Of a DNA stretch of 64,000 bases, positions 54,967-55,944 are shown piece after piece. The notes beneath the pieces were generated by a model, which worked only from the letters and a program-made list of their open reading frames with translations, did not search any database and had not been told where the DNA came from. A program made the translations under genes and the position numbers. Position 1 is the first letter of the stretch; the number at the start of each line of letters is the position of its first letter. The stretch comes from Escherichia coli (GTDB lineage: Bacteria > Pseudomonadota > Gammaproteobacteria > Enterobacterales > Enterobacteriaceae). The DNA is taken from the NCBI RefSeq assembly GCF_003790525.1, contig NZ_CP033633.1; one strand, given 5' to 3'.

Positions 54967-55203
54967 ATGTCGTTACGCAACTCTATACATGATTTTATAA
55001 TGCTGCTCCCGGCGCTGCTGTTGGTTGGGTGGTTAGTTTTGGTGATAATTCTCATGTTTAGGGATGATAAATGTGACAAAACTTACCGTGAAGGTTCGTT
55101 TCCCGAATTTATTTGTCTCCATTCTGAACGCTCGTCACTTCGAGAAACCGATTCTGAGAGACTCAATGTCAAATATACAGAAAACAATCACAAAAATAGG
55201 TAA
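54967..55203 (+). CDS. hypothetical small membrane protein, 78 aa
   Basis: Follows an extended -10 (TGGTATAAT) at about 54935; one TM helix; AT-rich. Confidence 0.3.
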   Translation: MSLRNSIHDFIMLLPALLLVGWLVLVIILMFRDDKCDKTYREGSFPEFICLHSERSSLRETDSERLNVKYTENNHKNR

Positions 55204-55455
55204 AACTAATAATACTATAGCTAAAAAAATAGTTACTTTTCTGTATCACCTGTCTCTCTCTGCTTTTTCATGGCTACTGTCGTATTTATGTCTGTTGCGC
55301 GGTTTTATCTGTGTGTATAAAATACATCTTTATTCATTGTTATCTGAAAATTTGCGTATGCTGATAAAAAATCCCATTTCTTATTTTCATATTGGCACAT
55401 TTTTATTATCAGGAAAAAAAGTCATCTTCTGGAATACTGGAAAGCAGAAGTTATC

Positions 55456-55944
55456 ATGCGGGATAAGTTTGTTTTTCACCGGCTTATCAGGAACGGTATG
55501 CAGAGGCAGAGAGGCTTTCTTCTGTGGTGGCGCCTGGCTAATGAAATGTATATATCAGGGAATAAAAAACAACGAAAATGTGCGATTAAGATAAAAAATG
55601 CGCTTATGGCAAAGTATGGATGTGATATTGGTCTGGGGGCGCAGATTGGTAAAGGCCTCGTGTTACCCCACCATTCAGGTGTCGTCATTCACGGTAATGT
55701 AAAGATCGGTGAGAATGTGATTATACGGCAGAACACGACCATTGGTGAAAAGGAATCTGACAGCAGAGAGAATTATATCGTTATTGGTGATAATGTCGAT
55801 GTAGGTGCCCATACGTGTATTATCGGGCTTAACGTAAAAATAGGCAGTAATGTAAAAATTGGAGCCATGTCTTTTATTATGGAGGAGGTTCCGGATAACT
55901 GTACCTACGTTACCAGGAAAGAATCACGGGTAATTATGCATTAA
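55456..55944 (+). CDS. hexapeptide-repeat acetyltransferase (CysE/WcaB-like left-handed beta-helix)
   Basis: 162 aa; repeats GCDIGLGAQIGKGLVLPHHSGVVIHGNVKIGENVIIRQNTTIG and DNVDVGAHTCIIGLNVKIGSNVKIGA. Confidence 0.7.
   Translation: MRDKFVFHRLIRNGMQRQRGFLLWWRLANEMYISGNKKQRKCAIKIKNALMAKYGCDIGLGAQIGKGLVLPHHSGVVIHGNVKIGENVIIRQNTTIGEKESDSRENYIVIGDNVDVGAHTCIIGLNVKIGSNVKIGAMSFIMEEVPDNCTYVTRKESRVIMH

Follow-up and report, generated by a model that had tools for sequence, protein, structure and literature searches.

Independent inheritance of the backbone ORF yaeA and a frameshifted phage-family acetyltransferase gene on an IncI-complex plasmid of Escherichia coli

The window, that is, the whole stretch of 64,000 nucleotides that was analyzed (E. 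coli assembly GCF_003790525.1, contig NZ_CP033633.1), belongs to a plasmid of the IncI-complex (IncK2/Z-type) E. coli type that is near-identical to pPK8261-145kb. Two open reading frames, of 78 residues (54967–55203) and 162 residues (55456–55944), are both present in the ORF list, as an earlier note on this DNA had reported; the note placed them in low-GC DNA, and the GC content of the region is indeed 0.383 vs 0.517 for the whole window. The same note read them as the operon of a small membrane protein and an acetyltransferase. The features of the locus are collected in Table 1. The stop codon of the first ORF, yaeA, is followed after 154 nt by the true start codon of the acetyltransferase gene, and no terminator was predicted between the two; neither promoter nor terminator predictions tie the ORFs together. 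The fopA gene has been placed between yafA and yagA (PMC7491321). The GC-rich spacer at 54597–54926 was considered as a structured RNA or intron remnant; it has no Rfam match and a modest fold z-score of −2.1. A neighboring gene for a 181-aa product is, like the acetyltransferase gene, dead through a 1-nt deletion.

Table 1. Features of the yaeA and acetyltransferase locus, in window coordinates
Feature	Position	Strand	Basis
Promoter-like extended −10, TGGTATAAT, ahead of yaeA	54930..54938	+	sequence reading
GGAG resembling a Shine-Dalgarno site, 8 nt ahead of the ATG of yaeA	54955..54958	+	sequence reading
Conserved yaeA backbone block, common to IncI and IncF plasmids	54924..55306	+	plasmid homology
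yaeA ORF, 78 aa, one predicted TM helix	54967..55203	+	ORF list, UniRef name, hydropathy
176-aa chimeric ORF	55064..55594	+	ORF list, alignment to intact alleles
Acetyltransferase cargo block, with or without yaeA	55231..55990	+	homology to pO55 and ~125 E. coli plasmids
Pseudogene (frameshift) for a SAT-like hexapeptide O-acetyltransferase of 195 aa, phrog_2154 family	55358..55944	+	intact alleles, RefSeq flags
A7 homopolymer, −1 frameshift site	55414..55420	+	intact alleles have A8; iso538 P1 has AAAAAAAC
Residual 162-aa ORF, start at internal Met34	55456..55944	+	ORF list, homologue alignment
Convergent FopA/YafB-like ProQ/FinO-domain RNA chaperone gene, context only	56224..56817	−	Pfam ProQ 48.3 bits; annotated in relatives

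The 78-aa ORF is yaeA, an uncharacterized ORF named in IncI plasmid annotation. Its exact product was found on 723 contigs and carries the UniRef name YaeA; PGAP leaves the gene unannotated, and YaeA has no matches in Pfam, NCBIfam, PHROG or PADLOC. As in yaeA of IncI plasmids, the ORF in the window is positioned upstream of the FopA-like gene, and in pSTM7 the homologous block, again unannotated, is found at the same place upstream of that gene. The window differs from the IncI region in that the acetyltransferase block replaces the yafA-side genes. Homology of the yaeA block to other plasmids begins at about 54924–54927, and IncF homology stops at about 55231–55240. The small membrane ORF of the earlier note is borne out by hydropathy, with a single strong hydrophobic helix at residues 11–29 (Kyte-Doolittle mean 3.0). 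The N-terminal ~45 residues are near-invariant, and the C-terminal third varies, with frequent frameshifts; the changes within yaeA are non-synonymous in 4 of 4 cases relative to pSTM7 and in 8 of 12 relative to p120899.

The note had also claimed a good promoter. This holds insofar as the extended −10 element TGGTATAAT (54930–54938), identified by reading the sequence, does not vary among three plasmids, namely that of the window, pSTM7 (IncI) and p120899 (IncF); it does not hold for a −35/−10 consensus scan, which gave no promoter on the + strand and left the extended −10 upstream of yaeA undetected. The Shine-Dalgarno-like site is TGAG in both pSTM7 and p120899 and hence unconserved. We regard yaeA, as read from these comparisons, as a plasmid backbone ORF carrying its own extended −10 promoter, with a predicted protein product. 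A type I toxin of the Hok/Gef kind was considered for YaeA, an idea prompted by a chromosomal homologue with a Hok-like gene in front of it, and was rejected. There was no match to HOK_GEF (PF01848) at E up to 0.1 and no BLASTP alignment with a Hok-like phrog_251 protein; the folding of yaeA mRNA is unremarkable (z-score −0.47), and antisense promoter or terminator matches at yaeA occur only at chance level.

In relatives, the second gene is a 588-bp CDS for 195 residues that starts at window position 55358, and it is intact in pE16-3, iso538 P1, pO55 and pEF5-18-41_2. The window has A7 at 55414–55420 where the intact alleles have A8, so that one A is missing in codons 20–22. Codons 1–21 of the true gene consequently fall in another frame, that of the 176-aa ORF (55064–55594), which consists of an upstream untranslated frame, then the true codons 1–21, then an out-of-frame tail. 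The frameshift cuts 33 conserved N-terminal residues from the only long ORF, which is left without helices H1–H2 (residues 6–17 and 24–33; two of the five N-terminal helices in the AlphaFold model) and without the near-invariant E31 (at least 90% invariant across 55 homologues); its start, Met34, corresponds to Arg in most homologues. In RefSeq, the gene of pPK8261-145kb, which is identical to this one, is marked as a frameshifted pseudogene, and so are those of AR_0085, pF11-3 and pPKF11, the four plasmids coming from independent isolates; some GenBank assemblies deposit the exact 162-aa product as an ordinary protein. Exact 195-aa products occur on 986 contigs, 162-aa products on 330 and the 176-aa frameshift product on 23 (Logan/ENA assemblies). 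The frameshift product, of 176 or 173 residues, thus recurs in independent assemblies and confirms the A7 allele, and many other alleles of the gene are broken at different sites. The 162-aa acetyltransferase of the earlier note was thus correctly placed as to family, with 40.9 bits against Pfam Hexapep PF00132 (cut-off 27), and misjudged as to the protein; judging from the alignments, the ORF is the frameshift remnant of a 195-aa protein, inactivated in this plasmid sub-lineage. A truncated protein might still be made from the internal ATG at 55456, since a weak AGAAG lies 5 nt upstream of it. A longer N-terminal extension, as in gene calls of 269–293 residues (for example, P0001, P0003 and P0076), was rejected because the upstream frame is unconserved; the iso538 P1 allele has two 1-nt insertions in this frame, and all homologues of 188–201 residues start at the position equivalent to MLIKNP.

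Could slipped-strand mispairing at the A8/A7 tract switch a surface-modifying acetyltransferase between ON and OFF states? The homopolymer lies in the 5′ coding region (codons 20–22) of a putative surface-modifying gene, and both states are common, as the contig counts for the 195-aa and 162-aa products attest. However, in a small sample, 5 of 5 plasmids with A7 have 54695C and 2 of 2 with A8 have 54695A, a linkage that fits one inherited mutation. The tract is also unconserved, being AAAAAAAC in iso538 P1 and made up of different codons in P0004 and P0005, other alleles are broken elsewhere, and the neighboring 181-aa gene is likewise dead by a 1-nt deletion. Phase variation is on these grounds quite unlikely.

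The acetyltransferase is a member of the hexapeptide (LbH) acyltransferase superfamily. The AlphaFold (AF2) model has a pLDDT of 94.6 and a regular beta-coil from residue ~90, and the intact 195-aa enzyme is predicted to combine a five-helix N-terminal domain with a left-handed beta-helix, which is the SAT fold. All of the top 50 PDB matches by Foldseek are LbH SATs, and the best folds are those of CysE (PDB 6wye/7ra4 and 1t3d; TM ~0.72, E 4e-11). The protein is soluble by hydropathy, its best hydrophobic window having a Kyte-Doolittle value of 1.1. It matches the phage family phrog_2154 with E = 3.4e-63 (residues 20–193 on profile positions 5–179 of 185), and the prophage homologues P0026 and P0034 match the same family with E values of 1e-64 and 9e-85. 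We assign it, by profile, to this uncharacterized family. The description of the gene as an acquired, low-GC accessory gene from the CysE/WcaB-like branch of the hexapeptide transferases agrees with these results.

Membership in the branch does not extend to any of the named enzymes. The best NCBIfam matches are to the short, SAT-like hexapeptide transferases WcaB (colanic acid) and EpsC and to CysE, and all fall far below the curated cut-offs: 86.9 bits vs 150 for EpsC (NF041874), 58.9 vs 194.65 and 58.2 vs 196 for WcaB (TIGR04016 and NF007564), and 77.0 vs 210.65 and 59.4 vs 397 for CysE (TIGR01172 and NF008349). WcaB and EpsC act in the cytoplasmic assembly of surface glycans. Although PGAP at times called the plasmid protein a 'colanic acid biosynthesis acetyltransferase', the gene is plasmid-borne, flanked by yaeA or yacB on one side and a fopA-like gene on the other, outside any wca or eps cluster, and its product groups with phage and plasmid proteins in a clade of their own (phrog_2154). 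Judged by model scores and aligned residues, the acetyltransferase is not a CysE, WcaB, EpsC or Vat/CatB enzyme.

The last of these names concerns the proposal, in part that of the earlier note, that the intact enzyme acts on a xenobiotic or antibiotic in the manner of Vat or CatB, or else that it is an intracellular anti-phage effector and not a glycan modifier. The hexapeptide fold and the location of homologues in prophage cargo hotspots, where defense genes also gather, are compatible with such a role. We nevertheless consider it very unlikely. The 25 best of 35 NCBIfam matches, which run down to E 7.6e-5, include no Vat/CatB model, so that the antibiotic option finds no family-model support, and the gene in pE16-3 bears no PLSDB/AMRFinder resistance flag. 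PADLOC gave no defense-system match for YaeA, the acetyltransferase or two prophage homologues, and the N-terminal helical domain is of the SAT type.

A true serine O-acetyltransferase, serving as an auxiliary gene of cysteine metabolism, would account for CysE and EpsC being the best family and structure matches and for the catalytic pair, His158/Asp143 of E. coli CysE being kept as H105/D90 (H105 is at least 90% invariant, and the D90 position is D or E in the displayed family rows). Besides scoring far under the equivalog cut-offs, however, the protein has P104, N139 and Y140 in place of the serine-binding D157, R192 and H193 of CysE. Across the alignment of 55 family sequences these positions vary, whereas P0110, a bona fide SAT of the EpsC type that the alignment includes, retains DH and RHP. 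At 195 residues vs ~270 and with 24–28% identity, the protein further differs from CysE in having an RQNTTIG signature for GVTLGG, in missing the CysK-binding C-terminus with its C-terminal Ile tail, and in its mobile-element context. Homologues lie among phage tail or LPS genes, and cys genes were never seen in their genomic contexts. That the intact enzyme acetylates serine is therefore highly improbable, and by its scores and residues it is no housekeeping serine acetyltransferase. Neither the name 'serine acetyltransferase' nor 'colanic acid acetyltransferase' is supported by active-site residues or curated thresholds.

The claim that the two genes form one module was contradicted by their distribution. 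Among complete E. coli genomes, yaeA alone is found in ~290, the acetyltransferase alone in ~125 and both in ~50, the count for both being 49; many match only query positions 305–1063 (acetyltransferase) or only 1–380 (yaeA). Of 5,426 complete E. coli genomes, 176 (3%) carry the acetyltransferase block, and 179 of its 180 places are on plasmids. The yaeA block is matched by 1,958 plasmid records, most of them spanning just query 368–741 of 54560–55300, and 44 records cover yaeA together with the acetyltransferase; yaeA is thus present without the acetyltransferase in ~1,900 plasmids, and pO55 has the acetyltransferase and lacks YaeA. Homology to pO55 and to the ~125 acetyltransferase-only E. 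coli plasmids starts at window position 55231, and in plasmids without yaeA the acetyltransferase block keeps its own 127-nt upstream region. Next to phage homologues of the acetyltransferase no yaeA was found. An intact operon, in which a promoter at ~54930 would serve the small membrane protein and a 162-aa acetyltransferase as an acquired module, could draw on the shared strand of the two ORFs, the strong −10 element that precedes yaeA, the lack of a predicted terminator between them and the same gene order in the ~50 genomes that carry both. Against it stand the frameshift in what is truly a 195-aa gene, inheritance of each element without the other, the separate upstream region and the phage homologues devoid of yaeA, and we give the operon hardly any credence. 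By homology, yaeA and the acetyltransferase gene are two independently inherited elements and no module, and the acetyltransferase gene on this plasmid is a decaying passenger unrelated to yaeA. An artefact of sequencing or assembly, with the gene intact in the real plasmid, is scarcely to be expected: homopolymer indels are typical of long reads and several further genes of the pPK8261 assembly, namely IS91, pilO2 and an integrase, are also labeled 'frameshifted', but we reject sequencing error as the cause because independent assemblies share A7, which recurs in plasmids of four further isolates (CDC AR bank, China and Pakistan), and collections derived from short reads contain the 176-aa and 162-aa products.

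What, then, might the intact enzyme do? In 59 of 68 viral loci (IMG/VR; eight clusters at 80% identity) the gene lies directly against a tail-fiber assembly gene, a convergent Caudo_TAP gene that follows immediately; other IMG/VR loci include HtrL_YibB with a tail fiber and a P22-type tailspike. Homologues are found beside tail-fiber genes in P2-like, P1-like, phiNP, Buttiauxella and Xenorhabdus phages. A homologue from P. mendocina, a single distant one with 49% identity over 72% of the protein, is inside an LPS-core cluster, between RfaP/WaaP-type kinases, a GT2 gene and MsbA, and further homologues adjoin ugd/arnT genes or an OafA-like acyltransferase. The position beside tail-fiber genes could mean no more than that the gap between convergent operons tolerates insertions. 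A study of P1-like phage plasmids (JL22) reportedly noted a serine acetyltransferase next to the tail fiber assembly gene. The phiNP gene has been listed as 'fitness' cargo (PMC6456863). Literature searches on yaeA, on prophage serine acetyltransferases and on prophage LPS-core acetylation turned up annotation-level mentions only, with no substrate assigned to any family member.

On balance we favor a reading in which the locus holds two independent elements, one of them a frameshifted phrog_2154 gene whose intact product would O-acetylate a surface glycan, probably LPS, as an enzyme of the lysogenic-conversion type. The intact enzyme would probably be a trimeric, acetyl-CoA-dependent O-acetyltransferase, with His105 acting together with Asp90 as the general base, as in CysE, and with an acceptor pocket presumably unsuited to serine. 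The likeliest acceptor would be a sugar of a cell-surface glycan, of the LPS core or O-unit, because homologues adjoin tail-fiber or tailspike genes and one is in an LPS-core cluster; the glycan would be one that is built on the cytoplasmic side of the inner membrane. The likely effect would be an altered or masked phage receptor, leading to lysogenic conversion or superinfection exclusion. By analogy, the enzyme may resemble Oac of Sf6 and the OafA/GtrC-type proteins in acetylating the LPS receptor that the phage itself uses, and it shares with them a placement beside tail-fiber or tailspike genes. Those enzymes, however, are integral-membrane Acyl_transf_3 proteins that act on the periplasmic side, whereas the enzyme considered here is predicted by hydropathy to be a soluble cytoplasmic LbH protein.

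A bolder version, which we think unlikely, is that phrog_2154 may comprise unrecognized soluble, cytoplasmic O-acetyltransferases of the LPS core or O-unit that mask the receptor of the carrier's own adhesins. For phages, these adhesins would be the tail fibers of P1-, P2- and P22-like phages. The PilV tip adhesin of the IncI thin pilus binds recipient LPS, and for IncI-complex plasmids the adhesin would be this shufflon-variable protein. The plasmid copy would then be a device of self-exclusion at the level of the receptor, and loss from the A-tract in this lineage would be a selectable OFF state, not mere decay.

In summary, for the window itself these results carry little weight, the pseudogene having already been flagged in RefSeq and its supposed partner being an unrelated backbone ORF. 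The favored reading of the intact enzyme as a glycan O-acetyltransferase concerns a widespread family that occurs on plasmids and in many P1-, P2- and P22-like prophages. Because its members are almost invariably found beside receptor-binding genes, the family may modify receptors (LPS) by a route that has gone unnoticed, which may affect phage host range, serotyping and possibly liquid mating of IncI plasmids.

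In the window, the acetyltransferase gene, whose proper start lies at 55358, is broken. The CysE/WcaB-like enzyme of 162 aa described in the earlier note is indeed related to those proteins, but it is the remnant of a longer gene. The corresponding CDS annotated in plasmids pE16-3, iso538 P1, pO55 and pEF5-18-41_2 has 588 bp (195 aa) and starts at the equivalent of window position 55358, beginning MLIKNPISYFHIGTFLLSGKK... The A tract at 55414–55420 contains seven A's in the window versus eight in pE16-3 (iso538 P1 reads AAAAAAAC). Because one A is missing, the first 21 codons continue in a foreign frame (a 176-aa ORF, 55064–55594), and the long hexapeptide frame can be entered only via an internal ATG at 55456. 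This Met34 is Arg in most homologues. The segment lost from the 162-aa ORF is conserved across 55 homologues, down to approximately 40% identity, and contains the nearly invariant E31. In a confident AlphaFold model (pLDDT 94.6), the N-terminal domain has five helices, and this segment supplies the first two.

The exact window sequence is already in RefSeq, where four plasmids, isolated separately and in different countries, carry the identical gene with a "frameshifted" pseudogene flag; the enzyme type is known and is here defective. The seven-A allele is no assembly artefact, since the exact 162-aa product was found on 330 contigs (the intact 195-aa product on 986) and the frameshift read-through product on approximately 25 contigs from short-read-based collections. 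Among the plasmids examined, position 54695 is C in five of five with seven A's and A in two of two with eight, a linkage that favors a single mutation passed on by descent over repeated switching. Truncations or frameshifts at other positions are found in many further alleles.

The neighboring AT-rich gene (GC 0.28, a single TM helix) is a second frameshifted cargo gene. Its two ORFs (95 and 86 aa) together make up a single 181-aa gene, intact in iso538 P1 and in the IncF plasmid p120899 (546-bp CDS, "hypothetical protein") and split in the window by the deletion of one G (CAAAGAAAAAC to CAAAAAAAAC). With the broken acetyltransferase, the picture suggested for this lineage is one of accessory cargo decay. 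The IS91 transposase has one additional C at 58824 relative to pE16-3, AR_0085, pF11-3 and others; RefSeq lists it as "frameshifted" in pPK8261, and the window ORF, from TTG, has 391 aa versus 395. More "frameshifted" genes, pilO2 and a site-specific integrase adjoining the pilV shufflon, occur in the pPK8261-145kb record at 127891–131346 (L111 31892–35347). Either the lineage is gathering pseudogenes or these are homopolymer errors in that assembly, independently of which the acetyltransferase frameshift was confirmed.

Both ORFs and the low GC content of their region (0.383 vs 0.517 for the whole window) were confirmed; their proposed union in an acquired operon or module was not. Block 54924–55306, with yaeA, is 95% identical in approximately 1,900 plasmids without the acetyltransferase (IncI1, IncI-gamma/K, IncB/O/K/Z, some IncF). 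In acetyltransferase-bearing plasmids such as pO55, homology starts only at 55231, past the yaeA stop, and tblastn found no YaeA in them. A combined query matched 465 of 5,426 complete E. coli genomes, only 49 of which span both genes; the listed matches, evenly sampled along the ranking, were split between acetyltransferase-only (query 305–1063) and yaeA-only (query 1–380 or 1–305), both of them common. The acetyltransferase is present in 176 of the 5,426 genomes, with 179 of 180 copies plasmid-borne, and no yaeA was found beside its phage or chromosomal homologues. Given these separate distributions, the "operon" is a juxtaposition, and yaeA is unrelated to the acetyltransferase.

YaeA (78 aa), encoded by the small ORF of the earlier note, is predicted to have one strongly hydrophobic helix, residues 11–29, in agreement with a small membrane protein. 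As for its supposedly good promoter, an extended −10 element (TGGTATAAT, 54930–54938) can be read in the sequence and is invariant in one IncI and one IncF relative, but a generic −35/−10 scan found no promoter on the + strand. The GGAG located 8 nt 5' of the ATG is TGAG in these relatives. The scan also found no terminator between yaeA and the 162-aa ORF. The exact protein is encoded on 723 contigs in public collections under the UniRef name YaeA, a name taken from the annotation of IncI plasmids; PGAP leaves the gene uncalled in the plasmids examined. The N-terminal 45 residues are nearly invariant, non-synonymous substitutions are the majority between plasmids, and C-terminal frameshift variants are frequent. 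YaeA matched nothing in Pfam, NCBIfam, PHROGs or PADLOC and had no homologues outside a narrow plasmid group; a relationship to Hok/Gef was tested and not found. We regard yaeA as a putative protein-coding gene only.

Features of the window around yaeA and the acetyltransferase gene, and places of acetyltransferase homologues in other elements
Feature	Coordinates	Remarks
repA	51686–52558	
Phd/YefM-RelE pair	53505–54040	
AT-rich gene	54050–54594	
GC-rich spacer	54597–54926	unannotated; GC 0.53
yaeA and acetyltransferase region	54967–55944	
ProQ/FinO-domain gene, FopA/YafB type	56224–56817	convergent
IS91 element	transposase 57671–58846	− strand; beyond ProQ/FinO-domain gene
Homologue, P2-like prophage	L007 8001–8573	between gpU and tail-fibre assembly gene
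Homologue, P1-like phage JL22	L014 4001–4576	between two convergent tail-fibre/assembly gene sets, beside cin
Homologue, Citrobacter phage phiNP		adjoins tail-fibre assembly gene
Homologues, Buttiauxella and Xenorhabdus myovirus-type prophages		beside tail-fibre genes
Homologue P0026, E. coli prophage end adjoining copA		after Hok-like gene

The 50–62 kb part of the window is 99.7% identical to pE16-3 (E. coli plasmid, IncK2/Z, MPF_I), and a comparison over 7.7 kb shows a single base difference from pPK8261-145kb, a plasmid of a chicken isolate. The region just upstream of repA (51523–51673) matches the Rfam PK-repZ pseudoknot (177 bits), and the other strand has a CopA/Inc-like antisense RNA (41 bits, under the Rfam gathering threshold); such replication control is typical of the IncI complex. 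The ProQ/FinO-domain gene is the FopA-like chaperone gene for the repA antisense pair. IncI transfer genes, the pil operon of the thin pilus and a pilV shufflon are also found on the host plasmid. The GC-rich spacer forms long hairpins (MFE −125 kcal/mol, z −2.1) and matched no Rfam family; its sub-piece 54779–54883 is 93–97% identical in Klebsiella, Citrobacter, Edwardsiella, Enterobacter and Shigella plasmids.

By sequence and modeled structure, the intact enzyme is a hexapeptide transferase of the serine-acetyltransferase branch. Hexapeptide repeats are genuinely present in the product of the 162-aa ORF (Pfam 40.9 bits vs cut-off 27), and the best PDB matches of the enzyme by sequence and structure are all CysE (24–28% identity, TM ~0.72). 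The best NCBIfam matches, EpsC (86.9 bits), CysE (77) and WcaB (58.9), fall far short of the curated cut-offs of 150, 210.65 and 194.65. Like CysE, the 195-aa enzyme retains the catalytic dyad of a His (H105) and an acidic residue (D90), whereas the serine-holding D157, R192 and H193 of CysE align to P104, N139 and Y140, positions variable within the family. An EpsC-type enzyme proper in the same alignment retains DH...RHP. This family has a signature of its own, [IVL]RQNTTIG. Since the serine-holding residues are replaced and the scores are below cut-offs, the intact enzyme is predicted to be an acetyl-CoA-dependent O-acetyltransferase with an acceptor other than serine. Both findings speak against a housekeeping serine acetyltransferase, and the suggested antibiotic or xenobiotic substrate is disfavored, with no Vat or CatB model among the best 25 of 35 NCBIfam matches. 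Neither cut-offs nor active-site residues support annotation as "serine acetyltransferase" or "colanic acid biosynthesis acetyltransferase". Overall, the observation in the earlier note is partly confirmed and its interpretation partly supported.

The uncharacterised phage family phrog_2154 is matched over the whole protein length (E 3e-63), and homologues at 44–67% identity are cargo genes of phages and prophages (Table). A scan of IMG/VR gave 267 viral stretches with relatives; 80 loci were kept, and for 68 of them the downstream sequence reached 700 nt or more. A convergent Caudo_TAP tail-fibre assembly gene lies immediately downstream in 59 of these 68, followed by a tail fibre; the 59 form eight clusters at 80% identity, and Pfam confirmed representatives drawn from three divergent clusters. 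Among the exceptions are a gene of the HtrL/YibB family with a tail fibre, and a tailspike of the P22 type. The tail-fibre junction may be simply a permissive insertion site. Outside mobile elements, the LPS-core cluster of Pseudomonas mendocina contains a homologue (49% identity); its neighbors are RfaP/WaaP-type kinases, a carbamoyltransferase and a GT2 to one side and MsbA to the other, with both RfaP and MsbA scoring above the curated cut-offs. One further homologue adjoins ugd/arnT genes and another an OafA-like acyltransferase.

Several loci have features of their own. In JL22 the homologue lies within the invertible C-segment region or at its centre. The HtrL/YibB-family gene (L032 1591–2445, L033 3753–4610; Pfam E 1e-76) follows the acetyltransferase homologue and precedes a tail-fibre-like ORF in L032 and a small unrelated ORF in L033; elsewhere, this family is familiar from the waa (LPS core) cluster of E. 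coli. Thirteen P2-like IMG/VR loci (L046 1989–2891 and 12 similar) have, after the tail-fibre assembly gene, no normal tail fibre but a 300-aa product that starts with a Macro domain (Pfam E 1e-18) and has a C-terminal tail rich in His and Gly. Approximately 200 nt upstream of the E. coli chromosomal homologue P0026, a 46-aa Hok/MokW-like gene (L003–L006, 7662–7802; phrog_251, E 1e-22) makes a second, unrelated pair of small membrane ORF and acetyltransferase, with no sequence similarity to YaeA. The closest homologue outside E. coli (67% identity) is on a Salmonella plasmid-like contig (L009/L010, 8001–8567, 12333–12959) beside a phage-type integrase. The contig is a Rep3 replicon, whose further genes include a different second hexapeptide transferase as well as VapBC-like and TacA/TacT-like (GNAT toxin) pairs.

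A literature search found no paper assigning a function to the acetyltransferase family. We propose that the intact enzyme would O-acetylate a sugar of a surface glycan during its assembly at the cytoplasmic face of the inner membrane; as the gene is inactive in the window, no such acetylation would be expected from this plasmid. LPS core is the leading candidate acceptor, because P1- and P2-type tail fibres bind LPS core and one homologue lies in a core cluster; O-antigen or another Und-PP-linked unit is the alternative. Such acetylation would alter the receptor that the carrier's own adhesin encounters, in the manner of lysogenic conversion or superinfection exclusion. The thin-pilus adhesin PilV of IncI plasmids binds LPS, and in the broadest reading, which we consider unlikely, the family may be a soluble LPS-acetylating, receptor-masking device common to phages and to IncI plasmids with an LPS-binding PilV.
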